Made by a program: the position numbers and the translations under genes. From Patescibacteria group bacterium (GTDB taxonomy: Bacteria > Patescibacteriota > Minisyncoccia > Phycocordibacterales > UBA9973): a stretch of DNA of 64,000 bases. Under the pieces are notes generated by a model. That model did no database searches. It was not told the DNA's origin and was given only the letters and a program-made list of their open reading frames with translations. The number at the start of each line of letters is the position of its first letter. Position 1 is the first letter of the stretch. The stretch is taken from assembly GCA_038063915.1 (NCBI GenBank), contig JBBTUE010000001.1, positions 23,619 through 87,618 on the forward strand. The letters are read 5' to 3'. This document shows, piece after piece, positions 11,848-61,009 of this stretch.

Positions 11848-11877
11848 TTGACAAGTGGGGTAGGTGTGTTGTATAAT
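11848..11877 (+). promoter_or_regulatory. consensus sigma70 promoter (TTGACA-18 nt-TATAAT) for the giant-gene pair
   Basis: TTGACAagtggggtaggtgtgttgTATAAT. The first ATG downstream (11885) is 7 nt after the -10 box. Confidence 0.55.
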
Positions 11878-11884
11878 GGAACAC

Positions 11885-14473
11885 ATGTCAGGACAACCAT
11901 GGAAAGAAGTTCTACGTGCAATCACTTCAAACGGGGGTGGTGGCAATTCTAATGAAGATAACAAAATAAGTAAACAAGAAAGGAAAGCGAGGGAAAAGGC
12001 AGAAAAAAAGTCTGTTCCTGCCCTACAAAACAAAGCTAGAGAAAAAAGATATCCTGTTGTTAATATTGAAACTGGAGGCGATCTAAACGTAGATAGTCCT
12101 CTTATTGAGCTAAGGGAGGTTGGAGACTACAACTCGATTTTGTTGGATGCTAATCCGGGGAAGAAAAAGAAGTCTGAACATTTAGGCAAGTTTAGCCCTG
12201 AAGAAAAGAAGGAGAAAAAATATATTAGATCAGGGGAGTATATGGAGCACTTAAAATCGAAAGTTTTTATGGATCCAGGCCATGCAAGAATGGCAGAGAA
12301 AACTCTGGACTATCTTGGAAAAAAGACATTCACTAAAGAATTAGTAGAAAAGTTATTCAGTGGGTACCCTGATGAGTCTACAGGGACAAGTAATAATGAT
12401 ATAATAAAGAAACGGAACATGCCTGGAAAAAATGAACTCAAAAGTAATGTTGTTGTAGAAAAAAAAGCACCTAATGCTGAAGATTTGAAGTTGCAGAATG
12501 AAATATATAGAGAAGCCGATTATTGGAGAGACATATTGAAAAGAAAATCTGGTGATAAGAAAAGGGATGAGAGGAATATGAGAGAGATGGAGACTTTCGA
12601 ACGTAGCCCTTATGGCTGGATGAAAGAAGCACTCACAAATGCTATTAATAAAAATAAAGCATTACTATCTGGTACTACTGATACTCGTGAACGACAAAGA
12701 ATAGATGAAAAGATTAGGATAAACACAGAAAGTTTAAATAATATTGATCACGCTTTTGAAAAGAATTTACCGCTGAAATTAGACAGGAAATTCACCCCAA
12801 ACGAAATGCCTCTAGGTAAAGACACGATATTCAAAGTGGGTGATTGGACAAAAGAAATAAATGACTATGTTGATGGAAAAAGCTCAAAATACTCTATAGA
12901 AGGGGTAGTTCAACGTCGGAATGACGACTTTATAGTTTTAAAAAATGACAAAGGGGAAACTGTTGAGATAAATCTCTGGGACTTGGCAGATGGAGTAAGG
13001 GAAAATCTCCCAGGGAAAAATGAAGGTGGAAAAGAAAAACAAAGTAAGTTTGAAGAAATAAAAAAAGGGTCTGTAGTTAAAGTTAGAACAGGTGGAGTAA
13101 AAGGCCCCGTGACTACCTACGAAATCTTAGATATTAAAGACGGTAAAGTTTTCTTTAAGAACCTGACAAAAAAACACGGAGGTAGTATGAATATGTCTAT
13201 AGAAGGCATGCAGGCTTTCCTTTCTGGTAGTGGTACAGAATTCCTAGTAGAAGAAAAAAAGGTTTTCGAGAAAGCAAAAGATCCTGTGGTTGAAAATAAG
13301 ACTATCCCAAAACCAAAGCAAACTGTCCCTGAGACTAAACCAGTCGTTATCGGAAGTGTAGATGATGTAAAAAGAATAGATAATGACCTTGGTTATGTTA
13401 ATGCTGCAGTCTTAACGAGAGAACTGAAGATTGATAGAAATAAGGCAGAGGAGTTATACAGAGAGTACATGGCAGGCAAGCCAAATGAGGCGACAGATAA
13501 TAAGACAAAAAAGAAGCCAGGAAAAGGTAAGGTGGAGAAAACTCCTGAAACTAAAACGGCTACGACCGAAGAAAAAACTGACAAAAAGGAAGAGAAAAAG
13601 AAGGCGGAGAAAAAAGAGAAGATCGTAGGACTAAGTGAAGAGAAAATGACAGAGATACTTGGATACACAAAGTCTGTAATGGAAAAGTGGAAAGCTGAAA
13701 AAGCACAAGATGATATTGAAAGACAAAAAGAGGAAGCGGAGGAAAAACAAGACGATGCAGAAAGGCAAAAAGAGCTTTATGAAATAAAAGCTGGTGAAGA
13801 AAAGCTAGCAGAACTCATGAAACTCCGAGAAAAACTCGTCGCTGAAGAAGGATTAAAAGAGAAACCGGAGGAAAATATTAATATAAGAGAGAGATTGGCC
13901 GACAATATTGCGCTACTAAAAGCAAATAAAAAGAGAGCCGAGGACGAACTGGCAAACACAAGTGGGCTCAGACTTTTAAAGGTGCTCGGACTCAATAAAT
14001 CAATAAAAAGAGCGAGAGTAGAATTATTGAGAATGGAAAAAATGGATCTTGAGCTCGATAAAAAAGAAAAACCACTACTCTACTATGCGGCCAGCAGAAT
14101 TACAAACGACTATGTACTACAAGAACTCCGAAATAAAGACCTGGGTGAAGTTATTGATTTGCGTCGTCTAAAAAACACCAATGAATACGAATGTAAAACC
14201 AAATATTTACATGGGACTAGAGAGAATGAAGGATTTTATGAATTCAACCCATTTGGGTTTGTAAAAGTTATAAAGAATGTAAAAGAAATACGCGACGATA
14301 AGGGAGTCAATATAGATTCAGAAGATGCTATATATAAAATACTGAGTCCAGATTTTAAGGTTATCGCCAATGACATAAAGGGGTACACCGAGGCGACGAG
14401 GCTTTATAATCAAGCAACTGAACAATATAAAATGAGGGTCGAAGAAAGATTCAACCAATTAAATAAGAAATAA
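11885..14473 (+). CDS. giant K/E-rich hypothetical protein (no TM predicted)
   Basis: Approx. 860 aa, extremely charged and lysine/glutamate-rich with long predicted coiled coils (KEEKKKAEKKEKIVGL..., ERQKEEAEEKQDDAERQKELYEIKAGEEKLAELMKLREKL). A consensus sigma70 promoter (11848-11877) overlaps the track start at 11864; the first ATG after the -10 box is at 11885. Confidence 0.5.
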   Translation: MSGQPWKEVLRAITSNGGGGNSNEDNKISKQERKAREKAEKKSVPALQNKAREKRYPVVNIETGGDLNVDSPLIELREVGDYNSILLDANPGKKKKSEHLGKFSPEEKKEKKYIRSGEYMEHLKSKVFMDPGHARMAEKTLDYLGKKTFTKELVEKLFSGYPDESTGTSNNDIIKKRNMPGKNELKSNVVVEKKAPNAEDLKLQNEIYREADYWRDILKRKSGDKKRDERNMREMETFERSPYGWMKEALTNAINKNKALLSGTTDTRERQRIDEKIRINTESLNNIDHAFEKNLPLKLDRKFTPNEMPLGKDTIFKVGDWTKEINDYVDGKSSKYSIEGVVQRRNDDFIVLKNDKGETVEINLWDLADGVRENLPGKNEGGKEKQSKFEEIKKGSVVKVRTGGVKGPVTTYEILDIKDGKVFFKNLTKKHGGSMNMSIEGMQAFLSGSGTEFLVEEKKVFEKAKDPVVENKTIPKPKQTVPETKPVVIGSVDDVKRIDNDLGYVNAAVLTRELKIDRNKAEELYREYMAGKPNEATDNKTKKKPGKGKVEKTPETKTATTEEKTDKKEEKKKAEKKEKIVGLSEEKMTEILGYTKSVMEKWKAEKAQDDIERQKEEAEEKQDDAERQKELYEIKAGEEKLAELMKLREKLVAEEGLKEKPEENINIRERLADNIALLKANKKRAEDELANTSGLRLLKVLGLNKSIKRARVELLRMEKMDLELDKKEKPLLYYAASRITNDYVLQELRNKDLGEVIDLRRLKNTNEYECKTKYLHGTRENEGFYEFNPFGFVKVIKNVKEIRDDKGVNIDSEDAIYKILSPDFKVIANDIKGYTEATRLYNQATEQYKMRVEERFNQLNKK

Positions 14474-14476
14474 TAT

Positions 14477-17395
14477 ATGAACAGAGAATCAATGCCTACA
14501 ACCTTAGCCGAAGTTGATAAACTTATAGCTGAAACCCAAAGCAAACTCGAGGCTGATACAAAGACGTACGAGGCTAATGAAAAAGCAAGAGATGCAAGAG
14601 GAGCAACTAGGGAAGCCAACGAAAAAATCAGAACCGAAAAAGAAGCCTCACAGGAGACAGAAAAAGAAGCGACCATAGATAGAGTCATTGCAGAAGGCGC
14701 TACAAAAGAACAGGCAAATGCTGTGCGTGAGAGTCTGGGTATGGAAGAAGATTTGAGAACTCCAGAGCAAAAAGTCAACGACGCGCGTAATAAATTTATA
14801 AAAGAATCTTTAAAACTTCGAGAGGAAACTCGTAAACGGACAAAAATAGCAAAAATAAAGAACTCAATTCTAAATGTATTCAGAAGTGATAATAAACAGA
14901 AGATCGCTCCTGAAGGAGTTTACCCTACCGAAAAACACAAGGAGGCAAAAAAGTCATACGATAGAGCCAAGACTGAGATGTATAATGACATGCTCAATAA
15001 AAAACGGATAGAACTAAAAGCGACTGGACTAAGTGGTAAGAAATTAGAAAAAGCTCTAACTGAGTACAAAACTACAGAAATAATACTCAAGACTATGCCA
15101 GAAGAACGTCAAAAAATAATTGACGCTAAAGTAGAGAAACCTGCTTTGTGGAAAAAGCTCGTGAGAGGCTATATGAGTATAAAGCCAAAATGGAAAAGGG
15201 TAGCACTCAGTACCGCACTATTCTTGGCACCAGCTGCTGCTGGAGCGATAGGATCTGCAGCTGCACTTTATTCACTTGGAGGATTGGCAGCTATTAAATT
15301 TGGTAGAAGTATGGCCATAGGTGGAATCAGCGCGACACTCGTCAAAGGAATAGATTGGTTGAAACGAGGTAAGGATGCAGAATTCAAAAGACAACAGGAG
15401 ATAAAAACAGCACAACTACAAGGAGAATTCGCAAAAGGTGAGATGACGGTGGAGCAGTTGGAAAAATATGAGAGTGGATCTGAAAGTATCGAAGATGCAA
15501 GTAGAAAGAGGTTGCGTAATCGTATGATACTTAAAATGAGTGTGGGTATTGCTATTGGTGCTGGAGCGGGTGCCTTATCCCACTTTGCTATGGATGGAGG
15601 AGGGCATCATGATGCGATACAACCTGACAATGGTACAGTTACACCAGATGGACCGGAAGTAAATACAAATATTCATAATGTAGTAGAAGCTGATGTCCTA
15701 AAAGGTCATGGAGCAATCCAGACAATATCTGAACTTCAAGATAAACTGAGAGCAGAATATCCAGATGTAACTCAAGCTCCGCCGAGCGTACAACATATAT
15801 TAAGCATGAAAGCTGATCGACTTGCTATCGAGTACGGCATGTTCAAGCCGGGAGATGATGCAGAAAGTGCAATTATGAAACTCGGTTCGAAGTTTGAAGT
15901 AGACACAGACGGAAATGTATCCTTCCACCAAGAAGGAACTACTACTCTATTAGAACAAGGAACTGACTCAGATGTCAGTCAAGTATATGGAGGTAGGATG
16001 ATTGATGGCGACCACTCTGGAAGAGTAGATGTAGATCGAGACCTTCAATCAGAATATGAGAAGATGCACCCACAGACAAATCCAGAAGGAGTAAAAACTT
16101 CTGATATGACTACTGAAGAATACAAACTGGCTCACCCACAAACAGATCCAGACGCACTACCAGAAGGAGTTAAGGTTTCCGACTTACCAGATGAATACAA
16201 ATCAACTCATCCATATTTAGATGAAAATACTCAGACACCCACTGAAGCTTCAACAACTCCAAAAATAGATGAGATAAAGACTAACCCACCAATTGAACCA
16301 TTAAAGGGCAACTGGAACACTGGTAATGAAGGCGTGATTCGTCCTCTGCAAGGCGACTTCAACATTGGAGGAGCAAGTACGCTCGGCACAGTAGGAGTCG
16401 GTCCATCAAATACTAGCGAGATGATCGATAACGGATTCACAAAAGAAGTACCAATGACAAACGTCGCTTCAAATGAAATTCTAGCCAGTCAGAAAATAGA
16501 TAATATAATAAACGTTGAACACGGTCCGAAGAATATAGATATTGACCGTATAGAAAAAGATGTTAGACACTTGGAAACTGTGAAGGATGTGAGGGAAACA
16601 TTTGGCCGTTCAAATGTAGTTATAGACAAGCCAGACGACAACACTATAGATGGAATAAAATACGATGAATGGAATAAATCTGTAAATGACACATTTGAAG
16701 ATCATAATGTGAAATTTACTTCGTACGAAGACTATAACAAGGAACGTGAATTGCAAGGACTCTTTGGCGAAAGCAATAAAGCAGTAGAATATACAGACGG
16801 CAAAAACGAGAACGTCATAACAACGACATATTTCCGCGACCCAGTTGCTCACCCTGAGTGGAATACTATAAGTAAAATCCCAGCTAAAAACTTCTTTGAA
16901 GACAATATCAACGAGACTACTAAACTAGTAGACGGAACTACTATATCAAAGGAGAACCTTGACCAACTAGTAGAAAAAGGAGTCTTAAATGATAATTATA
17001 AATTTACTCACCACGACGAGCTTGAACGTCTATCGAAAACCTATGAAAAGTTAGTTCCTAAAATTGAAGAAGCTCTTGCGAATGACAAACCGATTGGTAA
17101 CGAGACAATGGAGTCTTATATAGAACGTATTACTAAGAAAGTTTACCAAGCAGATGATGGAACACTCTATGGAGTCAAAGGCAACGTAAACTGGGACAAT
17201 CAAATTGCAAGATCTATAAACACAAGTCAAAATATATCCAATTATAGTGGTAATACCCCGACTACTAGCATCGCCCCTGGATATGGCCTATGGCAGACAA
17301 GTAGTGAATACAACAGGCAGATAACCAGTGATGTACTTAGGAGAGTTTTAGGATATAATGACATGACAACTGTAGTCCGTAATCCATTCAGATAA
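14477..17395 (+). CDS. giant hypothetical membrane protein with internal short repeats
   Basis: 972 aa. Charged coiled-coil N-terminal 240 aa, predicted TM segments (ALSTALFLAPAAAGAIGSAAALYSLGGLAAI; MSVGIAIGAGAGALSHFAM), and a C-terminal ~600 aa with three HPQT(N/D)P...EGVK(T/V)SD repeats. It starts 4 nt after the previous giant gene. Confidence 0.5.
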   Translation: MNRESMPTTLAEVDKLIAETQSKLEADTKTYEANEKARDARGATREANEKIRTEKEASQETEKEATIDRVIAEGATKEQANAVRESLGMEEDLRTPEQKVNDARNKFIKESLKLREETRKRTKIAKIKNSILNVFRSDNKQKIAPEGVYPTEKHKEAKKSYDRAKTEMYNDMLNKKRIELKATGLSGKKLEKALTEYKTTEIILKTMPEERQKIIDAKVEKPALWKKLVRGYMSIKPKWKRVALSTALFLAPAAAGAIGSAAALYSLGGLAAIKFGRSMAIGGISATLVKGIDWLKRGKDAEFKRQQEIKTAQLQGEFAKGEMTVEQLEKYESGSESIEDASRKRLRNRMILKMSVGIAIGAGAGALSHFAMDGGGHHDAIQPDNGTVTPDGPEVNTNIHNVVEADVLKGHGAIQTISELQDKLRAEYPDVTQAPPSVQHILSMKADRLAIEYGMFKPGDDAESAIMKLGSKFEVDTDGNVSFHQEGTTTLLEQGTDSDVSQVYGGRMIDGDHSGRVDVDRDLQSEYEKMHPQTNPEGVKTSDMTTEEYKLAHPQTDPDALPEGVKVSDLPDEYKSTHPYLDENTQTPTEASTTPKIDEIKTNPPIEPLKGNWNTGNEGVIRPLQGDFNIGGASTLGTVGVGPSNTSEMIDNGFTKEVPMTNVASNEILASQKIDNIINVEHGPKNIDIDRIEKDVRHLETVKDVRETFGRSNVVIDKPDDNTIDGIKYDEWNKSVNDTFEDHNVKFTSYEDYNKERELQGLFGESNKAVEYTDGKNENVITTTYFRDPVAHPEWNTISKIPAKNFFEDNINETTKLVDGTTISKENLDQLVEKGVLNDNYKFTHHDELERLSKTYEKLVPKIEEALANDKPIGNETMESYIERITKKVYQADDGTLYGVKGNVNWDNQIARSINTSQNISNYSGNTPTTSIAPGYGLWQTSSEYNRQITSDVLRRVLGYNDMTTVVRNPFR

Positions 17396-17774: not shown

Positions 17775-19709
17775 ATGAATTATCTAGAGTCCTTAAATGA
17801 TAAACAAAAAGAGGCAGTACTCTATACGGAGGGGCCTCTTTTGATTGTAGCAGGGGCAGGGGCAGGTAAGACAAAGACTATTACTCATCGCATAATTCAC
17901 CTAATTCACGAGGGAGTTAACCCAAGTTCGATTCTTGCCCTAACTTTTACCAACAAAGCTGCAAAGGAAATGCGCGATCGAGTATATTCATTGCTCGAAG
18001 ATAGAGAACATGGCACAAGTGAAGGTGGGCCTTTTCTTTCAACTTTCCACTCTCTCGGAGTCCATATTATAAAAGAAAATGCCCATCTTATAGGTCTAAC
18101 AAAGCACTTCGCTATTGCTGATGAACATGATGCCCTAGTTATCATTAAAGATGCCATGAAGGCTCGCGATATTGATCCAAAGCAGTACGAACCTAGAAAG
18201 ATAAAAAGTATTATATCGAAAGCCAAAGGTGACTTTATCTCTTGTGATACATATACTGAGAACGCTAGTAGCGCTATGGGAAGTATTGTAGCCAGCATTT
18301 GGCGTGAATATGAGCGAAGATTAAAAGAAGAAAAAGCTTTAGACTTTGACGACTTACTACTTGAGACAGTTTTAATATTAAAAAAATATCCAGAAATAAA
18401 ACAAACTTATCGAGAGAGATGGAAATATATTCACATAGATGAGTATCAAGATACGAATGAAGTCCAATATGAACTGACAAAGTTATTAGTTGGAAAGGAC
18501 GAGAATATTTGCGTCGTGGGCGACACTGATCAAAATATTTATAGCTGGCGCGGAGCAAATATTAAAAACATGCTTCACTTTGAGAAAGATTACCCGAATG
18601 CAAAAGTTATAATACTCGAGCAGAACTATCGCTCGACCAAGAATATTATCGAGGCAGCAAATAGTGTCATAAAGAAGAACCAATATCGAGTAGACAAAAC
18701 ACTATTCACAGAAAATAACGTTGGAGATACTATTAGTATATACGAAGCTTATGATGAGGCAGTGGAGGCAGAATTTGTAGCGGAATCAATTCAAGAGTTA
18801 TTGAAAAGTAACTCACCAGAAGATATAGCAATACTATATAGAGCAAACTTTCAATCAAGAGTCCTAGAGGAAGCATTGCTTAGCCGGCTCATACCATATC
18901 AAGTTTTGGGTATTAAATTCTTTGAGAGAAGAGAAGTGAAAGATTTACTCTCTTATATTCGCGCATCTTACAACAGAGAAAGCCTCTCGGATATTAAACG
19001 CATTATAAACACACCAACCCGTGGTATAGGTAAAGTAACATTGGCGAAATTGTTTGCTGGTGATACTACAAACTTGCCAGTTGCGATGCAAGAGAAAATA
19101 AATAAATTCTATTTACTTCTCGATAAAATCCGCGAATACACAGACGCCCATACTCCATCCGAATCTATAAAGTATGTAATAAAAGAAACTGGGCTTGAAG
19201 ATGAACTAGCGCATGGACCAAGTGACGAGCAAGAACGCTTGGAAAATATGAAGGAATTGGTGACCCTAGCCACCAAGTATGATTCTATGCACCAAGGTGA
19301 GGGAATAGAGAAATTGCTTGAAGATGCTTCTTTAGCAAGTGATCAAGATACACTTATGCACAAAGAAAGCCTGCCTGCCGGTAGGCAGGGTGTGAGGCTC
19401 ATGACAGTACATGCATCAAAAGGGCTTGAATTCAAATATGTTTTCGTCACTGGAATGGAGCAAGATCTTTTCCCTCATGCACGAAGCGACGGAAAATCAA
19501 AAGAAGATTCTGAAGAAGAGAGGAGGCTTTTCTATGTAGCTCTGACGCGTGCAAGACACAAATTATTCCTTTCTTACGCGTCGCTTCGTACTATTTTTGG
19601 AAGTAAGCAAGTAAATACTCCGAGTGAATTTATTTATGATATCCCAGAGCATCTGACAGACTTCGACCAAGGTGGACCAAAAAGTGGCGAGAGAGTGGTG
19701 TACTTATAA
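17775..19709 (+). CDS. UvrD/PcrA/Rep-family ATP-dependent DNA helicase
   Basis: Motif I (AGAGAGKTKTITHRI), Ia (ILALTFTNKAAKEM), II (IHIDEYQDTN), III (VVGDTDQNIYSWRGA), V/VI (MTVHASKGLEFKYVFVTG; VALTRARHKLFLSY). Confidence 0.85.
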   Translation: MNYLESLNDKQKEAVLYTEGPLLIVAGAGAGKTKTITHRIIHLIHEGVNPSSILALTFTNKAAKEMRDRVYSLLEDREHGTSEGGPFLSTFHSLGVHIIKENAHLIGLTKHFAIADEHDALVIIKDAMKARDIDPKQYEPRKIKSIISKAKGDFISCDTYTENASSAMGSIVASIWREYERRLKEEKALDFDDLLLETVLILKKYPEIKQTYRERWKYIHIDEYQDTNEVQYELTKLLVGKDENICVVGDTDQNIYSWRGANIKNMLHFEKDYPNAKVIILEQNYRSTKNIIEAANSVIKKNQYRVDKTLFTENNVGDTISIYEAYDEAVEAEFVAESIQELLKSNSPEDIAILYRANFQSRVLEEALLSRLIPYQVLGIKFFERREVKDLLSYIRASYNRESLSDIKRIINTPTRGIGKVTLAKLFAGDTTNLPVAMQEKINKFYLLLDKIREYTDAHTPSESIKYVIKETGLEDELAHGPSDEQERLENMKELVTLATKYDSMHQGEGIEKLLEDASLASDQDTLMHKESLPAGRQGVRLMTVHASKGLEFKYVFVTGMEQDLFPHARSDGKSKEDSEEERRLFYVALTRARHKLFLSYASLRTIFGSKQVNTPSEFIYDIPEHLTDFDQGGPKSGERVVYL

Positions 19710-21449: not shown

Positions 21450-24182
21450 ATGAATAAAGGAATTACAAGAAAAATCGTTTCAACTTTAATCATCGCTTTA
21501 TTCCTAGTGGAAGCTGTTTTACCATTACAGACATATGCCGCTATCTCGACAAACGGTTTTACGACTCCTACGGGCCAAGCATCTACCCCTCTAAACTACG
21601 ACAATCCAAATAAGGGTGACAACCCATTTAAACCAAAAGTTAAAGATTTCTTGAACCCTCAGCTACTATCCCAAGTTGTTGGGTGTACTGGTATTGTAAA
21701 CAAGGTTTCGGACAAAGTACTTGCAGCTGTGGAGAAGGTTGCCGGTAAATTAATAGGCAAGGCGAAAAAGGCCGTAGAAGACTTTGTAAAAAAACAACTA
21801 GCAAAAAAGGTGAAAGATAACGTAGTTATTGTAGTAGTAGATGTCGTCAAAACAGCTTTAGCTGCAACAGTCACTTCACCTGGATCAGGATTTGGAAATG
21901 CAGCTGGTGATGCATTAGAGGACGTTGGAAGAGAGACTATAACGGCAAGAGATGCAAATGACGCAGGTGTGCAGAAAAGACAGGACAAAGCAGCGGAGGA
22001 TAAACTTGCAAAAGATAAAGACGACGAAAGAAAGAGAGTGCAAAAAGAATACAGAGAAAACTGCTTAAACGGTATCGCAATTCAACTTGCGAAAAATCAA
22101 CTCTCAGCAATGACCAAGCACACCATGAGTTGGATAAATACTGGATTTAGTGGAGATCCATTCTATGTCAAAAATGTAAGTAAATATATGGACGATATAG
22201 AAAGGGGAATCTTAGCAGAAGAAACAAGACTATTTAAAGGTGCAGGTAGTAGTATTAATTATCCATATGGTCAGGACTTTGCTCGAGGTGCAATATCGAC
22301 AGAGCAAGCATCTAAAAACTTTGCCGAATCAACAAAACAAAATCTTACCAGTTACCTCGCACCAGGAAAAACCGTTGATGATTTTGCGAATGATTTTTCC
22401 GCAGGTGGAAAACGTCCGTGGGATGCATGGTATTCGCTAACTCAAGATGATAATAATAACCCGTTCGGCTTTGCGGCAAATAATGCTAATAATATTATCG
22501 ACAAACAAGCAGACGCAAAGGAGCAGGCGAAGGCGGAGTTAGTAGAAGGGGAAGGGTATAGACCGCAAAAGGTCTGCAAGGAGTGGGCAAAACCAGACAA
22601 TAATTATGACGCTTCTATGTATTCAACCCCAGAAGAATGGTTTGCTTCGGAAGAATATGCCTCTTTATCTAAAACTAAATGCCTAGTGTATGAGACGGTT
22701 ACCCCTGGTAGTACTATAAAAGCTAAAGTTGATACATACATAAATACACCAGAGAATCAGCTCACATTAGTGCGGACAATGAACGATGCCCTAAACGCTT
22801 TTTTCACTATGATACTTGGCAAATTTACAAGTAAAGGAGGACTTGCTGGACTAAATCCAGCATTAAATATCCCTTCTGGGACTTCTGTTGGTGAAGAGAT
22901 AACGAGAAACATAAGATTCGATGAGGATGGATATGTAATGGTAGAAGATACTCCATACGGAGAAGGAATAATAGCTTCAAATACTACAACTGGAGTAAAT
23001 GTTGGTAATGGCTTCACTACACCTACAGCAACTAGTGGAGGTGGAGTAACGAATAGTTCCCATGCGTATATACAAGATGATGGTTTTGATATCACAAAAG
23101 ACCTTGGTAATATTTACGACCAAGACGGAGTGCTAATCAAAAAAGGTGTTATTCAAAATCAATACGACTACATAGATGCAATGGGTATCTATAGATCAGT
23201 CATTGCCGACGTACTGCCTGCTCTTGGCGAGCTTGATTATTGTATCCCGGGCCCGAATCCAAATTGGAGAGAGAACTCCAAAGAAGCGATAGACGCGTAT
23301 CTGGAGACCCTAACAGGTATAGGAGACGTGGGAGATGTGGGAGGACAACAATTTGAATATGCTCCAGAGGGTGCTTACGAATATCCTAAGCCGGTACCAG
23401 AAGTTCCTGCTAAAAAGAAACTATCATTCATTAAGAGATTGGCCATTATTATTAGTCCTACGGCGAGAATGAACGAAACGAGAAAGAAGTTTAAAGAGAT
23501 AAAGGAAAGAAGACAAAACGAAAAAGAGAGGGCTGTCATAGAGGCAGAGAATGAGAGAATTAGACTAAAGAACGAAAAAATAAGAGACGATATGTTAAAG
23601 GGTAAAAGACCACTCGACCCAATATTTATAGCCAACACTATTGGAAAAGATCGAGATTCTATTTTGAGAATGATTTCTCCAGAGAATACTGGGCTCGACC
23701 CCGTAAAACTTTTGGCAACCTTAGATGACTTTGAGGCATCAATAGATGCAACTTACGGCCTATCTGGTCCTATGCAAAACTACTGGAGCGGGAACAGTAA
23801 ATACTTGCAGATGTCACAAGAGGGCTTGAATCTGACAAAGAATATACCTGACTATATAGAAGAGATTGAGGCGGCCAAATCCGACTCGAGAGATTTGTTA
23901 GCCGAAGCAACTCCAAATCTCGACAAGCTAAAAGCAATTCAAATCAAAGTAAATGAGATAATAGCTGCCGCCCAGAAAAGAAGAAATGAGAAGGTGAGAA
24001 AGCAAGGTGGCCCCACTCTTAGCTCAGCATGTCTATTAAAAGAAAAGGTAACTTACACGGATTACAACGGCAAGATTATGTCTTCAGTTAGCGACAGGCC
24101 ACTGCCAATTATTAAAAGTAGGGAAGAAGTAATCAAAGACTACGCCCCTGTAGATAATTCATTAATAAAAGTATCCCAATAA
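21450..24182 (+). CDS. large secreted hypothetical protein (910 aa)
   Basis: Signal peptide (IVSTLIIALFLVEAVLPLQTYAA), then a long extracytoplasmic polypeptide with no catalytic motif recognisable. First large gene of the T4SS-like cluster; possible surface/adhesin component. Confidence 0.4.
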   Translation: MNKGITRKIVSTLIIALFLVEAVLPLQTYAAISTNGFTTPTGQASTPLNYDNPNKGDNPFKPKVKDFLNPQLLSQVVGCTGIVNKVSDKVLAAVEKVAGKLIGKAKKAVEDFVKKQLAKKVKDNVVIVVVDVVKTALAATVTSPGSGFGNAAGDALEDVGRETITARDANDAGVQKRQDKAAEDKLAKDKDDERKRVQKEYRENCLNGIAIQLAKNQLSAMTKHTMSWINTGFSGDPFYVKNVSKYMDDIERGILAEETRLFKGAGSSINYPYGQDFARGAISTEQASKNFAESTKQNLTSYLAPGKTVDDFANDFSAGGKRPWDAWYSLTQDDNNNPFGFAANNANNIIDKQADAKEQAKAELVEGEGYRPQKVCKEWAKPDNNYDASMYSTPEEWFASEEYASLSKTKCLVYETVTPGSTIKAKVDTYINTPENQLTLVRTMNDALNAFFTMILGKFTSKGGLAGLNPALNIPSGTSVGEEITRNIRFDEDGYVMVEDTPYGEGIIASNTTTGVNVGNGFTTPTATSGGGVTNSSHAYIQDDGFDITKDLGNIYDQDGVLIKKGVIQNQYDYIDAMGIYRSVIADVLPALGELDYCIPGPNPNWRENSKEAIDAYLETLTGIGDVGDVGGQQFEYAPEGAYEYPKPVPEVPAKKKLSFIKRLAIIISPTARMNETRKKFKEIKERRQNEKERAVIEAENERIRLKNEKIRDDMLKGKRPLDPIFIANTIGKDRDSILRMISPENTGLDPVKLLATLDDFEASIDATYGLSGPMQNYWSGNSKYLQMSQEGLNLTKNIPDYIEEIEAAKSDSRDLLAEATPNLDKLKAIQIKVNEIIAAAQKRRNEKVRKQGGPTLSSACLLKEKVTYTDYNGKIMSSVSDRPLPIIKSREEVIKDYAPVDNSLIKVSQ

Positions 24183-24967: not shown

Positions 24968-27619
24968 ATGATAAGAAAACTCATCCCTTCCATCTTAATA
25001 GTTCTCATAGCCGTGAACCTATTCGCGCCTTTTACGCTTGGGATTGATAAAAAGAATAATATAGAAATAAAAAAATCAGTCGCGGAAGCTGACTTGTCTA
25101 TAACATTAGTAAAAATGAAGAGAACTAAAACATCAATCTCTTTTGGTTTTGATATTACACAACTAAGTAAGACAGATAACTTTGGCATAATAGCAGTGGT
25201 CACAAATAAAAAGGGAACTACTATGTCGAAAGAGTCTTTGGAGTTCATAAACTTCCAAGTTGGGTTAGGTGCTGGTAAAGACTGTGGAGCAATTAATGAT
25301 ACCCTTTTCACAATACCAAAAGATTCTAGAGTTGCTGGTGGTAGAGACGGTTGTGGTAGTAACTGGTTAAAAGATAATAGAAATGAGGGCTTGGCTACCG
25401 TAACTGTACCAAATTTAGTCAAAAATACACCTTATTATATAAGTTTTTTCGGCTATGCTGGAGATAAAGATATTGAAAAAAGTCTTGCCTTTCCAATATA
25501 CGACAGAGAAATTCGCACAACTTCTGATAACGAAGAAGATGATACTATAATGGAGGAACTTGGGACAACAAACTCAGACTCAGGGTACTTACCTTGGTGT
25601 ACTAGAGCTGTTTTTAAAGTTAATATTGGGGGTTGTTTTGCCCAAATTCTATACACAATTACTTTCAAGCCAACTTCATTTATTTTTGGGTTAGCTGGGC
25701 AGTTCTTTGACTTTACCTTCTTTTACTCCATAAGTGATAGCTCGTACCGATCAGGATTCGTAGTAGAGGGGTGGGGAGTAGTGCGTGACTTTGTAAATAT
25801 GTTCTTCATATTTGTCCTCCTCTATATTGCATTCTCGACAATATTATCTCTTCATGGATTTAAAACAAAAGAGATGATCATAAACGTTGTCATTATTGGA
25901 CTTCTTATAAATTTCAGTCTTTTCGCCACGCAAGTAATTATAGATACATCGAATATTCTGGCGCGCGTTTTCTATAACTCTGTAACGTCAGGCAGCGTAG
26001 ATGAAAGTACAAAGGAGTTTAAAGAAGAGAGGGGTGCACAAGGGGAGATTCAGCTTTCGGCACAAATTGTTAATATGGTTGATCCTCAGAAGCTTATAAT
26101 AAAAGCTTCAAGGGTCGGATCTACAGATAGAGGAACTACGGATAATTCGAATCAGTTTTCACGAGGTATAAGTGTTGGAACATTTATATTAGTGACTTTA
26201 CTTGCATCCGCGGTGAATGTAGTGGGTATAATTGTTTTTCTTTCTGTTGGCCTTATATTCTTAGCCCGAGTTATAGGCCTTTGGTTTGCGATGATATTCG
26301 TGCCATTCGCATTCTTCTCATATACCGTACCTGCCATGCAAGACATAGAAATGATTGGTTGGAAGAAGTGGTGGCCGGAAACTTTAAAATTGGCATTCCT
26401 AGCACCAATCTTTATGTTCTTTATGTATCTAATCATTAAATTCTTGGGTGGAAAAGAATTCTTGAAGCTCAACGGAGACAGCGGGGCAGCATTTATAATA
26501 GCAATCATTGTGCCTTTCATTTTTATAATGATTCTCCTACTCCGAGCAAAAGGTATTGCAAAAGATTTGTCTGGGAAAATTGGAGCAGCAATTACAAAAG
26601 GTGCCGTTGTAGCGGGAGGCCTTGCAGTTGCTGGTGGTGGATTGGCAGCTGCGGGTGGAGCAGCCCTTGGTAGGGGTCTGATAACGAACCCAATGAAAAT
26701 GATGCAATCGAGCCAGGCTACTAGAACTGCTGCACTAAAGAATTTCAGTATGGTTAAACCAGCTACTTGGGGCAAGGCTATGAGCGCACGTATGGCGAAT
26801 TTTAGTGTTAAGGGTGGCGGTAAGGGAGTTGGCACAGGAGTATATGATGTAGCTACCAGAAGAGAAATCAAAAGGGAGGGATCTAATAAACTAAGAGATA
26901 GACTACTTGGTATTAAAGATAGAAAAGCTGACAAGGGTCATGCATCACAATTACTCGACGAACAAGCGGATAAAATACAGAAGGGTGCAAAATACTCAGA
27001 TCTTTCTGCTCCAGAACAAGCTAAAGCTAAGACAACTATTAACAACAACGAGGTATCAAAAGCTTTGTTTGGTAAGGAATCTGATAAATTAGATAACTCA
27101 CAGATTTCTATGCTTTCAGGTATTGTAAATACAAACGGAGCAATCAATACTGCAGCACTGTCTACAGCAGCAACTACCTTGGGTAAAGATATATCGAAAT
27201 TCTACGATCCTACTAATGCTGACCCAACAAAAAGAGCAGTAAAGGATGCCAATCATCATGAGAAGATATACAACAAACCAGATAAAGATCACGTGGGTAA
27301 CGCGCTTGCATTCGCAGCGGGTGGAACGTACGACATAAGAAATATGAAGAGTGGTGGCCTTACTGCACTTGGCATTGCCTCAGCATTCCTAGGAATCGCT
27401 CCTGTATTTGCGCTCGCTATGTCAGCTCATACATCTGGCGCCCTAAGGACAGGTTTGAAAAAGTTCACAGGAGTAGATCATGGATTCTCGCAAAAGGACT
27501 TCTTGAAAGACTTGAGTCACACTTTAGACACAGCATTAAGTAGTATTAAAATTAGTGTAAAAACCGACGGCAAGGGTCACAGTGATGCAAAAGCAAAAGT
27601 AGGTGGGGGAGGACATTAA
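24968..27619 (+). CDS. TrbL/VirB6-like polytopic T4SS membrane protein with N-terminal secreted domain
   Basis: 883 aa: signal peptide plus a ~220-aa extracytoplasmic domain, 5-7 predicted TM helices (e.g. FVNMFFIFVLLYIAFSTILSL; VVIIGLLINFSLFATQVIID; FILVTLLASAVNVVGIIVFLSVGLIFLARVIGLWFAMIFVPFAFF; LAFLAPIFMFFMYLIIKFL; FIIAIIVPFIFIMILLL) and a Gly/Ala-rich hydrophilic tail (GAVVAGGLAVAGGGLAAAGGAALGRG) as in TrbL. Position next to the PrgI/VirB3 and VirB4 genes supports the call. Confidence 0.5.
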   Translation: MIRKLIPSILIVLIAVNLFAPFTLGIDKKNNIEIKKSVAEADLSITLVKMKRTKTSISFGFDITQLSKTDNFGIIAVVTNKKGTTMSKESLEFINFQVGLGAGKDCGAINDTLFTIPKDSRVAGGRDGCGSNWLKDNRNEGLATVTVPNLVKNTPYYISFFGYAGDKDIEKSLAFPIYDREIRTTSDNEEDDTIMEELGTTNSDSGYLPWCTRAVFKVNIGGCFAQILYTITFKPTSFIFGLAGQFFDFTFFYSISDSSYRSGFVVEGWGVVRDFVNMFFIFVLLYIAFSTILSLHGFKTKEMIINVVIIGLLINFSLFATQVIIDTSNILARVFYNSVTSGSVDESTKEFKEERGAQGEIQLSAQIVNMVDPQKLIIKASRVGSTDRGTTDNSNQFSRGISVGTFILVTLLASAVNVVGIIVFLSVGLIFLARVIGLWFAMIFVPFAFFSYTVPAMQDIEMIGWKKWWPETLKLAFLAPIFMFFMYLIIKFLGGKEFLKLNGDSGAAFIIAIIVPFIFIMILLLRAKGIAKDLSGKIGAAITKGAVVAGGLAVAGGGLAAAGGAALGRGLITNPMKMMQSSQATRTAALKNFSMVKPATWGKAMSARMANFSVKGGGKGVGTGVYDVATRREIKREGSNKLRDRLLGIKDRKADKGHASQLLDEQADKIQKGAKYSDLSAPEQAKAKTTINNNEVSKALFGKESDKLDNSQISMLSGIVNTNGAINTAALSTAATTLGKDISKFYDPTNADPTKRAVKDANHHEKIYNKPDKDHVGNALAFAAGGTYDIRNMKSGGLTALGIASAFLGIAPVFALAMSAHTSGALRTGLKKFTGVDHGFSQKDFLKDLSHTLDTALSSIKISVKTDGKGHSDAKAKVGGGGH

Positions 27620-29816: not shown

Positions 29817-31655
29817 ATGGGGATTTTCTCTAAAATTTTTGGTGGTAGTAATGTATCTCGAGCAAAGAGTACTCTTGTGATGCCTGTTATCCCTTCTGAA
29901 ATATATAGAGCGGCAACTCTTGAACTCCAAGACATCATCGCGCCTTCGGCTCTTGAAATTACCCCGAAGGGTATCAATCTCGGAGACAAAATTGCTCGTA
30001 CATTTTTTGTTATTTCATACCCAAGATATCTGACCGATAACTGGTTTTCGCCGATTATTAATCTTGATAAAGTTTTTGACGTTTCTATATTTATTCACCC
30101 TATCGACACTTCGGATATATTACGATCTTTCCAAAAGAAAGTAGCCGAGGTTCAAAGTCAGATATCTATCCGCGAATCAAAAGGCCTTGTTCGTGACCCA
30201 ATGCTTGATACTGCCTATCGTGACTTGGAAAGCCTGCGTGATAACTTGATGCAAGCCCAAGAGAAAATGTTTGATGTCGGCTTATACATCACTATCTATG
30301 CAGACAACGAGAACGATTTATTCAAAACTGAAAGTGAGATCAAGTCATTACTTGAATCAAAGCTTATATATTTAAAACCTGCATTGTTCCAGCAAGACGA
30401 GGGGTTTAAAAGTATTATTCCTCTCGGCACAGATTTGCTTGGGATACATCAAAAGCTCAATACTGAGCCACTCTCTAGCTTATTTCCATTCGTATCTTTT
30501 GACCTGACCTCTGATAAGGGTATTTTATACGGGGTAAATCGTCACAATTCTAGCCTTATAATATTTGATAGATTCTCTCTACCAAACTACAACTCCATCA
30601 CTTTTGCAACGTCGGGCGCTGGTAAATCTTATGCCACCAAGCTCGAAATTATACGCACGCTCATGTTTGATACCGAAGTAATAGTCATCGACCCAGAACG
30701 CGAGTACGAATATTTATCTGAAGCTGTTGGTGGTAGATACTTTAATATCGCACTTTCTTCTGACCACCATATCAATCCTTTTGACCTGCCTATACCGAGC
30801 TCTGACGAGACTCCAGCTGACGTGCTTCGGGCAAACACTATAAACTTGGTGGGGCTATTCCGGATAATGCTCGGAGGTCTCACTCCAGAAGAAGATTCTA
30901 TTATCGACCGCGCCATCACTGAAACCTATGCTCTTAAAGACATCACTGCTGATTCTAACTTTGCAAATATTGAACCGCCACTTCTCACAGACTTTGAAAT
31001 GGTGTTGGCTGGCATGGAAGGAAGTGGATCTCTCATTCAACGTTTGGCGAAATTTACTCACGGCTCTTGGGCTTCATTCCTCAACCAAGCATCAAATGTA
31101 GACATCAATCGTAAATTCGTCGTCTTCTCAGTGCGAGACATGGAAGACGAGCTCAAACCTGTAGCCATGTATATCGTGACTCATTATATATGGAATGCGA
31201 TTAGAAAAAATATAAAGAAAAGATTACTCGTAGTAGACGAGGCGTGGTGGATGATGAAATCAGAAGATACTGCCTCATTCCTATACTCTATTGCAAAGAG
31301 AGGACGTAAATACTACCTCGGGCTTGCCACTATCACCCAAGACGTAGGGGACTTCATGAAAAGCCCTTATGGAGTGCCAATTGTCACCAACTCGTCGATT
31401 CAACTATTGTTAAAACAGTCACCTTCGACTGTCGACGTACTACAGAAAACTTTTAATTTAACAGACGAAGAAAAATACCTACTTCTTGAAGCAAATGTCG
31501 GAGAGGGGATATTCTTTGCTGGGCTCAAACACGTAGCAGTGAAGACTATCGCATCATATACTGAGGACCAGATTATAACCTCCGATCCATCACAAATCCT
31601 TGCTATCAAGAAAGCAAAGGACGACTTGGCGGCAACAGAAGCAGTAAAACCTTAG
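29817..31655 (+). CDS. VirB4/TrbE/CagE-family T4SS ATPase, C-terminal ATPase portion
   Basis: Walker A FATSGAGKSYATK, VIVIDPEREY...INPFDL, Walker B LLVVDEAWWMM (DEAW), motif C GLATITQDVGDF. No TM and no VirD4-type features. Confidence 0.8.
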   Translation: MGIFSKIFGGSNVSRAKSTLVMPVIPSEIYRAATLELQDIIAPSALEITPKGINLGDKIARTFFVISYPRYLTDNWFSPIINLDKVFDVSIFIHPIDTSDILRSFQKKVAEVQSQISIRESKGLVRDPMLDTAYRDLESLRDNLMQAQEKMFDVGLYITIYADNENDLFKTESEIKSLLESKLIYLKPALFQQDEGFKSIIPLGTDLLGIHQKLNTEPLSSLFPFVSFDLTSDKGILYGVNRHNSSLIIFDRFSLPNYNSITFATSGAGKSYATKLEIIRTLMFDTEVIVIDPEREYEYLSEAVGGRYFNIALSSDHHINPFDLPIPSSDETPADVLRANTINLVGLFRIMLGGLTPEEDSIIDRAITETYALKDITADSNFANIEPPLLTDFEMVLAGMEGSGSLIQRLAKFTHGSWASFLNQASNVDINRKFVVFSVRDMEDELKPVAMYIVTHYIWNAIRKNIKKRLLVVDEAWWMMKSEDTASFLYSIAKRGRKYYLGLATITQDVGDFMKSPYGVPIVTNSSIQLLLKQSPSTVDVLQKTFNLTDEEKYLLLEANVGEGIFFAGLKHVAVKTIASYTEDQIITSDPSQILAIKKAKDDLAATEAVKP

Positions 31656-58581: not shown

Positions 58582-58687
58582 TCAACGCCCGCCCGCCAAC
58601 CACTTGTGGGGCGGGGGCATCATAGCCCAAGTAAGCTTTTAGCGGTGGATTGAGTTTGAGTTCGTACTAGAGTAGAATGAAGGAGTT

Positions 58688-59251: not shown

Positions 59252-60838
59252 TTATTCCATCGCTTTCATCATTTGTTTCGCTACAGCCTCAACCACAGGA
59301 ACACTCACAGAGTTTCCTGCTTGTTTATATAGAGCTGAGTCAGAGATTTTTGGCAAAATATAATCTTTTGGGAATCCTTGAATTCTAAAGCATTCTAAAG
59401 GAGTAAGTTTTCGTATGCCTATTTTGTCTTTTATAATAGGCACGTTGTGCCCACCCATTCCCATATTTGCTGTTAATGTTGGGCAAACCCCACTTTTGTT
59501 TTCTCTTACATATTGTCTACGCCATTGATATACTTTACCTTCCTCTTTTATATCTTTCTTAAGTTTTTCAAAAAGAGGTTTACCATTGTAATAATATTTT
59601 TCAGGCACGTTTTTCTCTAATATATCGGTGATTTTTTTAGTTAGTTTGATTGGGTGAGGGAATTCAAATTTTTCAGAATAATCCTTATTTTTAAAACCCA
59701 CTATATAAATGCGCTCTCTATTCTGTGGGATATTCCCATATTCCATGCTATTTAGAATTTTTGATTTTACAAAATACCCCATTTCCTTTAATCTTTCCTC
59801 AATAACTTTAAAAGTATTGCCTCCGTCATGACTTTTCAAATTCTTAACATTTTCTAAAAGAAATCCTTCAGGTTTTCTTTCTTCTAAAATCTCTGCCAGT
59901 TTATTAAATAAATTTCCTCTACCTTTTTCATCATCAAAACCTTTTCTATATCCAGCTATTGAAAACGGTTGGCAAGGGAATCCTGCCAAAAGGAAATCAA
60001 ATTTAGGTAAATCATCTATGCCAAGTACATTTAAGTCTTCTACTACAAGTTTTGAGTCCTTAAAATTTAAATCATATGTTTGCCTGCAAGGTTCATCGAA
60101 ATCATTTGCAAAAACTGTTTTAAACCCAGCGTTCTCAAATCCTAAGCGTATTCCACCTACACCTGCAAACAGATCAATTGTTTTAAACCCATGTTTAGTC
60201 TTTTTCGCAACTGACTTTTCTGGCTTATTAGTGATATTACTTATAACTTGAACAACAATACCTCGCACCTCAACATCTGTTCTAAATAGTGTAGGCATAT
60301 TTGGGTTTCTTGGTTCAAGGTTAAAACCTTTTCCTTTTCTATAAAGTTTTTTTAATGTCGCTTCGTTATCGTCAATAATAGCCACAACAGTCTGACCATT
60401 TTCAGCAACAGATTGGTTTTTTATTATCACAATATCACCATCAAAAATACCGTCATCTATCATAGAATCTCCAACGACACGTAGTGCGTAATATCCTTCT
60501 GACGATCTAATTTGTGGATTTATGACAGAAACTGAGCCATCTCTTTCTTCTATTGCTGGGAGTGGGTATCCAGCTTTAATGCTTCCAAGTATTGGAATTT
60601 CAATTACTGGTCTAATTTCTTTTTTTAAAATTAAGCTCCTAGCCGAATTATTAGACTTCGAAAGATACCCTTTTGATTTTAGAGAATTTATATGTTCATG
60701 TATCGTAGAAACTGCTTTTAGTTTTAACCTTTTTCGTATTTCTTCGATGGTAGGGGATATACCGTTTTCCTGAGTATAATTATCTATAAAATCTAATACA
60801 TTTTTTTGTTTTCTTGTTATTGTCTTCATATTTATCAT
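59252..60838 (-). CDS. LexA repressor (wHTH + S24 peptidase) fused to DNA (cytosine-5)-methyltransferase
   Basis: Continuous 528-aa ORF. N-terminal LexA (RKQKNVLDFIDNYTQENGISPTIEEIRKRL...; AG bond in SIKAGYPLP; VVGDSM Ser; ATLKKL Lys). C-terminal C5-MTase motifs I DLFAGVGG, IV GFPCQPFS, VI ENVKNL, VIII QNRERIYIVG, IX-X RKLTPLECFRIQGFP / QAGNSVSVPV. Confidence 0.75.
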   Translation of the reverse strand: MINMKTITRKQKNVLDFIDNYTQENGISPTIEEIRKRLKLKAVSTIHEHINSLKSKGYLSKSNNSARSLILKKEIRPVIEIPILGSIKAGYPLPAIEERDGSVSVINPQIRSSEGYYALRVVGDSMIDDGIFDGDIVIIKNQSVAENGQTVVAIIDDNEATLKKLYRKGKGFNLEPRNPNMPTLFRTDVEVRGIVVQVISNITNKPEKSVAKKTKHGFKTIDLFAGVGGIRLGFENAGFKTVFANDFDEPCRQTYDLNFKDSKLVVEDLNVLGIDDLPKFDFLLAGFPCQPFSIAGYRKGFDDEKGRGNLFNKLAEILEERKPEGFLLENVKNLKSHDGGNTFKVIEERLKEMGYFVKSKILNSMEYGNIPQNRERIYIVGFKNKDYSEKFEFPHPIKLTKKITDILEKNVPEKYYYNGKPLFEKLKKDIKEEGKVYQWRRQYVRENKSGVCPTLTANMGMGGHNVPIIKDKIGIRKLTPLECFRIQGFPKDYILPKISDSALYKQAGNSVSVPVVEAVAKQMMKAME

Positions 60839-61009
60839 ATTTTGCTACATTTACATTATATACGAATAAAAACCGAAAACTAAGGCAGTTATACACAGTT
60901 TCTACACACATTTATCACCAAAGTATACTTTTCGTTAAATGTCAAGGTGATATAATTAATAAGTAGAAGAGAAAGTCGAACTCATTAAAGAACTACAAGT
61001 CTAAAATTT

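Follow-up and report, generated by a model that had tools for sequence, protein, structure and literature searches.

In the 64,000-nucleotide (nt) stretch of contig JBBTUE010000001.1 analyzed here (hereafter the window), which comes from a Patescibacteria group bacterium, one minus-strand open reading frame (ORF) encodes a complete LexA-type repressor fused in frame to a complete C5 cytosine DNA methyltransferase. The N-terminal half is a genuine and apparently self-cleavable member of the LexA family, cleavage being predicted from its residues. The gene is the methylase (M) gene of a Type II restriction-modification (R-M) module, and this module is horizontally mobile. Such an architecture suggests a link between protection of the cell against its own restriction enzyme and DNA damage. 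By a narrow preference, the LexA half is read here as the module's own autorepressor, cleavable through RecA*, whose release would shift the system toward protection upon damage. A first-pass annotation of this DNA did not recognize the architecture as described; no description of the fusion was found in the literature searched either, although an earlier mention is still possible.

The uninterrupted frame of 528 amino acids (aa) was confirmed: it contains no internal stop, and all motif strings quoted in the first-pass annotation are present in its translation. The true start is probably the methionine at residue 4 (position 60829), giving a protein of 525 aa, because homologues consistently begin with M-x-x-L-T-K-K-Q-K (n = 77). 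Pfam and NCBIfam profiles agree on a full LexA with cleavage site and Ser/Lys dyad joined to a whole C5 methyltransferase (Table 1), as had been proposed. In NCBIfam, the lexA equivalog TIGR00498 is matched over profile positions 1-202 of 203 with 172.6 bits (cutoff 110.95), and TIGR00675 (dcm) with 330 bits (cutoff 100.65). Pairwise alignment with E. coli LexA superimposes A89-G90 on A84-G85, S125 on S119, and K163 on K156. The methyltransferase domain is similar to M.Bsp6I and M.HhaI, and residue-level alignment to M.HhaI recovers motifs I, IV, VI, and VIII, the target-recognition region, and motifs IX and X in order. Both halves also find matches in the PDB, namely Thermotoga LexA (3k2z) over residues 7-198 (2e-31) and M.HhaI over residues 213-521 (2e-55). 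An AlphaFold model of the fusion, of moderate confidence (mean predicted local distance difference test score, pLDDT, 69.8), added solely a predicted disordered linker, with pLDDT <50 at model residues 199-213.

Conservation was assessed as mean pairwise identity among 81 fusion sequences. Identity is 0.75 in the winged helix-turn-helix (HTH) domain, 0.73 in the S24 domain, and 0.82-0.86 in the methylase segments, against 0.49 in the hinge and 0.50 in the linker between S24 and methylase. Folded domains at 0.73-0.86, with hinge and linker near 0.49, indicate that selection maintains all three domains; judged by these figures, purifying selection acts on both LexA domains, whereas the linker regions drift. 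Ala89, Ser125, and Lys163 are found in 81/81 homologues and Gly90 in 80/81, and the cleavage bond and Ser/Lys dyad are also kept in the most distant member, which is 62% identical. Most sequences (75/81) have no methionine in the S24-methylase linker; with no conserved methionine there, the methylase is expected to be made only as a fusion.

The fusion is not rare, since it belongs to a large family that already bears database names. At least 120 protein-database clusters (90% identity) share the three domains and a length of ~525 aa, with 76-100% identity to the window protein. Their members come from Patescibacteria/Parcubacteria assemblies of several sources, under names such as 'transcriptional repressor LexA' (NCBI) or 'DNA (cytosine-5)-methyltransferase 1' (JGI). 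Among GTDB species representatives, 470 loci encode a relative, and the best 80 of these 470 are 68-84% identical to the window protein. An intact full-length fusion is present in 77 of the 80, the other three running off the contig end. The host lineages include Nomura-, Vogel-, Moran-, Giovannoni-, Falkow-, Uhr-, Staskawicz-, Taylor-, and Zambryskii-bacteria. Clustering at 50% identity puts all fusions into one cluster, so they form a single tight family. A frameshift, missed stop, or chimeric join at the LexA-methylase junction, the artefacts raised in the first-pass annotation, was ruled out, as the junction is intact in 81 independent assemblies. No copy of the fusion was found in IMG/VR, where methylase-only relatives occur, and no record in phage and plasmid collections covers at least 80% of the fusion protein. 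According to record titles, some fusion-bearing contigs were binned as Rhabdochlamydiaceae, Flavobacteriales, Gammaproteobacteria, or Bdellovibrionales (L010, L025, L076, L082), and many as Saccharibacteria; these odd taxon labels probably reflect mistakes of binning or labelling, not the real hosts.

Assignment to an R-M module comes from the convergent neighbor of the fusion gene. Restriction activity next to the fusion had been anticipated, and the adjoining gene indeed matches RE_Bsp6I (4e-14); the stop codons of the two genes touch (TAA followed by TTA). The same arrangement is general: of 75 loci whose downstream sequence is long enough, 74 have a convergent ORF that adjoins the fusion gene or overlaps it slightly, with gaps mostly between -12 and +9 nt. 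Across loci, these partners fall into 8 unrelated families. The Bsp6I-like family (R0) includes the window and occupies 28 loci; family R5 carries the B3-like C-terminal domain of NgoFVII (RE_NgoFVII_C, 1.9e-15), a PDB search of this family giving no match, and family R6 is a PD-(D/E)XK nuclease (6e-9). The target-recognition region of the methylase is the best conserved part of the fusion (mean pairwise identity 0.86), and partner families are scattered over the fusion-protein tree; therefore, one methylase specificity seems to serve many interchangeable endonucleases. Moreover, in 25 related loci a small co-oriented HTH_3 gene (7e-12) lies directly upstream of the endonuclease (R) gene. It encodes proteins of 73-85 aa (...SKIESGQRRFDVLQLKEFAKLYKKSLDFF; for example, L016:8160-8414) that resemble R-M controller (C) proteins. 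The same C protein accompanies five unrelated endonuclease families, and only the R gene between C and the LexA-methylase gene seems to be exchanged. A tblastn search found no C-like ORF in the window. No terminator-like site was found between or within the M and R genes of the window, so transcripts of each gene should run antisense through the other. At locus L042, a tandem repeat of CAACGGCT (4-5 copies, plus a partial inverted copy) lies ~110 nt before the start of the Bsp6I-like gene.

The specificity of the methylase is probably of the GCNGC type, as suggested by its relatives and by the composition of the window. Among cultured hosts, the nearest methylases, 56% identical over their full length, adjoin a 'Bsp6I family type II restriction endonuclease', as on Lactococcus plasmid pAF22. 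NgoFVII cuts GCSGC. GCSGC is depleted in the window, with an observed/expected ratio of 0.35; the depletion of GCNGC is mild (0.79). The target of M.Bsp6I is GCNGC (PMC2790894). Other relatives of the methylase domain (46% identity) carry an N-terminal RE_Bsp6I domain and are single-chain R-M enzymes (P0217, 539 aa; P0187, 567 aa). Compared with dinucleotide shuffles, the window is also depleted in CCGG (0.60), CCNGG (0.66), and GATC (0.67); GCWGC (1.04) and GGCC (0.97) show no depletion, and CGNCG is overrepresented (1.73). This depletion of palindromes suggests pressure from several restriction systems.

The promoter of the fusion gene contains the candidate operator of the repressor. Homology among 77 upstream regions begins abruptly ~95 nt before the start codon, with the consensus tgtggataa..t.GCTTtg..TTTCGGtTT.t.TTCGGTTATAaT.aAAtTGTAGCg. 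The family promoter consensus is TTGnnT-17-TATAAT; the window's own promoter was missed by a consensus scanner, its -35 element being weak, and was read from the sequence. In 76 of 77 loci, the 17-nt spacer between -35 and -10 is filled by a direct repeat, TTCGG-N6-TTCG[GT], whose 11-bp period does not vary. The exact repeat is unique within the window, where it obtains a position weight matrix (PWM) score of 22.3 against 11.4 for the runner-up, and in ~0.9 Mb of related loci it is found at fusion promoters and in 2 stray places. In the notation TTC-N8-TTC, its geometry is that of the direct-repeat LexA box GTTC-N7-GTTC of Alphaproteobacteria (PMC8565304). A repressor bound there, as is predicted, would occlude RNA polymerase. 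No operator-like site was seen near the endonuclease promoter of the window, nor upstream of its UvrD-like helicase or polA genes. The first-pass annotation had proposed a scan for palindromic LexA-box candidates upstream of the gene; the conserved element is a direct repeat, and the palindromic Gram-positive-type box CGAAC-N4-GTTCG is absent. A possible inverted repeat, ATAAC/GTTAT, stretches across the promoter but probably owes its presence to the -10 element, and methylation-dependent self-control is not indicated, the conserved promoter having no GCNGC site.

At the upstream edge of the conserved region, a 9-mer resembling a DnaA box is found 20-23 nt before the repeat. The DnaA-box consensus TGTGGATAA is perfect in 47/70 promoters and present with at most one mismatch in 59/70. 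This element might link methylase expression to DnaA and replication, or might be another operator. In the most divergent member (L079:5925-5960), the DnaA-box-like motif and the TTCGG repeat are inverted relative to the fusion gene, and the inverted motif abuts a different -10 element facing a divergent ORF of 229 aa.

The module is considered mobile because its genes are far more conserved than their flanks and because some genomes hold two copies. There is almost no synteny outside the M, R, and C genes. About 100 cross-species locus pairs have fusions at least 90% identical, and most of these have no flanking ORF in common within 6 kb. In pairs that do share flanks, the flanking proteins have diverged far more than the fusion, with identities of 46.6% against 90.5% for L005/L007, 62.2% against 95.4% for L066/L070, and 43.5% against 77% for the window and L026. 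The histories of R and M also disagree: the L068 endonuclease is 92.5% identical to that of the window and the L068 fusion just 74%. Two fusion copies (L019 and L054) lie on one Vogelbacteria contig (CAIRHC010000009.1), with Bsp6I-like and family R4 partners, near-identical recognition regions (0.925), and the same operator-like repeat. In the metagenome-assembled genome (MAG) JAVHOH01, two copies (L004 and L063) are on separate contigs. A search for terminal inverted repeats, in which the far end of the module would carry TGTGGATAA in inverted orientation, gave no consistent copy. Upstream of the fusion in L002 (L002:1-7910), two large serine recombinases, an N6/N4 methylase, an OLD-family TOPRIM nuclease, and an FtsK-gamma-like gene form what looks like an integrated mobile or defence island.

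Mobility and operator distribution both bear on another role for the protein, namely that of the cell's true SOS repressor: a housekeeping lexA would have joined a neighboring methylase gene, and its product would control a genome-wide regulon in addition to itself. The first-pass annotation had gone further and considered it possibly the only LexA of the organism. Passing the TIGR00498 cutoff over the full profile, and the NCBI name LexA, would fit such a role, but the gene is paired with an endonuclease gene and occurs in unrelated contexts with less conserved flanks. Autoregulation through a box in the gene's own promoter is normal for lexA genes, yet no other operator-like site lies in the window, and just 2 stray exact repeats were seen in the related loci. 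Likewise, the lack of a second LexA-like ORF in the 64-kb window (tblastn) and the gene economy plausible for small Patescibacteria genomes have to be set against the two copies on one contig, the two in another MAG, and the presence of the fusion in 470 species representatives only. With an approximate E. coli RecA query, recA was not found in the window or related loci. Altogether, mobility and a repeat confined almost entirely to its own promoter favor a module-specific regulator; in the window and related loci the idea of an only LexA finds no support, and a role as general SOS repressor appears quite unlikely.

For the module-specific regulator, the following sequence of events is proposed. 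The fusion, as a dimer, would bind the TTCGG-N6-TTCGG repeat between the -35 and -10 elements of its own promoter. This autorepression would keep methylase synthesis low and self-limited, while allowing a burst of expression in a naive host. RecA filaments on single-stranded DNA, formed upon damage including breaks made by the module's endonuclease at unmethylated sites, would stimulate the S24 domain to cut between Ala89 and Gly90. Because the LexA half is complete, repression should be irreversibly releasable by such self-cleavage. Cleavage would free the DNA-binding domain and derepress the promoter, yielding more methylase, still joined to the S24 dimerization domain, and the derepressed transcripts would cross the adjoining endonuclease gene in antisense. 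Overall, damage would tilt the system toward protection, as a counterpart of restriction alleviation for Type II systems. We infer here that the protein binds DNA and is cut in a RecA*-dependent way, that its promoter is then derepressed, that antisense transcription interferes with the endonuclease gene, and that the effect runs in this direction. Precedents exist for parts of this scheme, as imbalance of Type II R-M systems induces SOS, methylases bind their own promoters, and R-M systems are controlled by antisense or convergent promoters (PMC3874152). A protective outcome is attractive because self-restriction itself generates the RecA signal.

Several points weigh against this proposal. 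The 310-aa domain placed C-terminal to S24 might hinder docking in the RecA filament groove. That the catalytic residues do not vary says rather little in a family whose mean column identity is 82%. The operator is assigned by its position and its likeness to LexA boxes known elsewhere; in the window, its second half-site (TTCGT) is degenerate, as is the -35 element, and some other factor could bind the repeat or the adjacent TGTGGATAA element. Five of the 8 partner families, presumed to be endonucleases, have no detectable nuclease signature (Pfam and NCBIfam; PDB for R1). Finally, the sequence cannot tell a protective outcome from a suicidal one.

A broader version of the autorepressor proposal can be drawn, in which one polypeptide is sensor, switch, and antidote. 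A RecA-triggered self-cut would derepress M and silence R by antisense transcription; the protein may double as an SOS regulator, the DnaA box may tie the methylase to replication initiation, and LexA-methylase and C genes may form a dock for exchanged isospecific endonuclease genes. Taken as a whole, this combination is speculative and rather unlikely.

It could also be hypothesized that the LexA half serves dimerization and autorepression only, self-cleavage being slow, RecA-independent, or vestigial, with no link to damage. The conserved operator-like repeat in the promoter and the SsoII-type precedent of methylase autoregulation would be accounted for, and the C-terminal fusion may block docking on RecA*. 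However, a simple HTH would suffice for this purpose, as in other methylases, whereas here the whole S24 domain is under apparent purifying selection, with the bond and dyad kept in 81 copies (80 for Gly90) and likewise in the outlier of 62% identity. Autorepression without a damage link is accordingly held to be improbable.

Fragments of E. coli LexA are degraded by ClpXP and Lon after cleavage. By the same architecture and conserved cleavage residues, a suicide switch resembling abortive infection or post-segregational killing could be imagined, in which RecA*-induced cleavage disables the methylase and the stable endonuclease destroys the chromosome, as Type II R-M systems do kill through R/M imbalance, inducing SOS (PMC3874152), but this is the least probable of the readings, since derepression upon cleavage would also replenish the fusion, opposing methylase loss, no sequence feature predicts an unstable S24-methylase fragment, and ordinary DNA damage would become lethal, a costly trait for widespread carriers.

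Table 1. Features of the LexA-methylase module in the window (positions are those of the whole 64,000-nt stretch).
Feature	Position	Strand	Basis or remark
LexA-C5 methyltransferase fusion gene	59252..60838	-	Longest ORF 528 aa; stop TAA 59254-59252
LexA-type winged helix-turn-helix, residues 4-67	60638..60829	-	PF01726 LexA_DNA_bind, 2.5e-15, profile positions 1-64/65
Ala89-Gly90, predicted self-cleavage bond	60569..60574	-	Aligns with E. coli LexA A84-G85
Peptidase S24 domain, residues 82-196	60251..60595	-	PF00717, 1.1e-27, full profile
Ser125 and Lys163	60464-60466 and 60350-60352	-	S24 Ser/Lys dyad
Linker from S24 to methyltransferase, residues 197-217 (~20 aa)	60188..60250	-	Poorly conserved
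C5 cytosine DNA methyltransferase, residues 218-524	59267..60187	-	PF00145 DNA_methylase, 6e-89, profile positions 1-323/324
Core promoter of fusion gene	60855..60883	-	-35 TTAGTT 60883-60878, 17-nt spacer, -10 TATAAT 60860-60855; read from sequence
Candidate operator, direct repeat TTCGG-N6-TTCGT, 11-bp period	60862..60877	-	Fills the -35/-10 spacer
DnaA-box-like 9-mer TGTGTATAA	60889..60897	-	One mismatch from TGTGGATAA; upstream edge of conserved module
Convergent restriction endonuclease gene, Bsp6I family, 187 aa	58688..59251	+	PF09504 RE_Bsp6I, 4.1e-14
Candidate endonuclease promoter TTGAGT-17-TAGAAT	58650..58678	+	Consensus scan; no TTCGG repeat

Elsewhere in the window, four very large ORFs (869-972 aa; 11864-17395, 21450-24182, and 24968-27619) have no Pfam match at 1e-5. 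They adjoin a TraG-like ATPase (29817-31655) and the UvrD/PcrA-like helicase (17775-19709), and may encode cell-surface or type-IV-secretion-related proteins typical of Patescibacteria.

Type II systems endanger their host, and it is only partly known how cells escape self-restriction after damage or repair. The fusion, which has relatives in 470 species-level genomes, offers a testable case for the retuning of a Type II system by SOS. It presents LexA in the role of a portable control domain within a mobile element, not in that of a chromosomal global regulator, which bears on the origin of lexA paralogues and of new LexA-binding motifs. Moreover, the labels 'LexA' and 'cytosine methyltransferase' can mislead reconstructions of SOS regulons and censuses of R-M systems in Patescibacteria.

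Compared with canonical LexA (E. coli; Thermotoga maritima, 3k2z), the fusion shares the winged HTH, Ala-Gly hinge, S24 Ser/Lys dyad, full-profile TIGR00498 match, and a repeat resembling a LexA box in its own promoter. It differs in its added 310-aa C-terminal C5 methyltransferase, in its place within a mobile R-M module, and in that no regulon beyond its own promoter was detected in the window and ~0.9 Mb of related loci. Bsp6I/LlaDII-type GCNGC systems have the same RE_Bsp6I endonuclease and, on pAF22, a methylase 56% identical; in these plasmid systems, however, a stand-alone M gene lies in tandem with R, whereas the Patescibacteria family has a LexA-fused, convergent M gene and swaps R among 8 unrelated families. 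In C-protein-controlled R-M systems of the PvuII, BamHI, and Esp1396I type, as in 25 of the related loci, an HTH_3 gene lies directly upstream of R and co-oriented with it, but the window has no C gene, and LexA-type control of M would be additional and independent. Ultraviolet- and SOS-linked restriction alleviation is known for Type I systems, and CapH/CapP-type regulators sense damage for cyclic-oligonucleotide-based antiphage signaling systems (CBASS). The likeness to these is one of concept only, a damage signal retuning defence via proteolysis or repressor cleavage; their components are unrelated, and the fusion unites sensor, repressor, and protective enzyme in one polypeptide.

The closest parallel for the methylase half is found in M.SsoII, M.Ecl18kI, M.EcoRII, and M.ScrFIA, C5 methylases in which an N-terminal DNA-binding region represses their own promoter (PMC3874152). 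These are likened to the fusion by function alone, as Type II C5 methylases with an N-terminal DNA-binding module and an operator-like element in the promoter, and by analogy autoregulation of M would be expected here too. Unlike their short HTH, the fusion has a complete LexA of ~200 aa with an autoproteolytic S24 domain, so repression should be irreversibly releasable by a damage signal. Altogether, the family is a variant of two known kinds, the autoregulatory R-M methylases and the LexA-family repressors.

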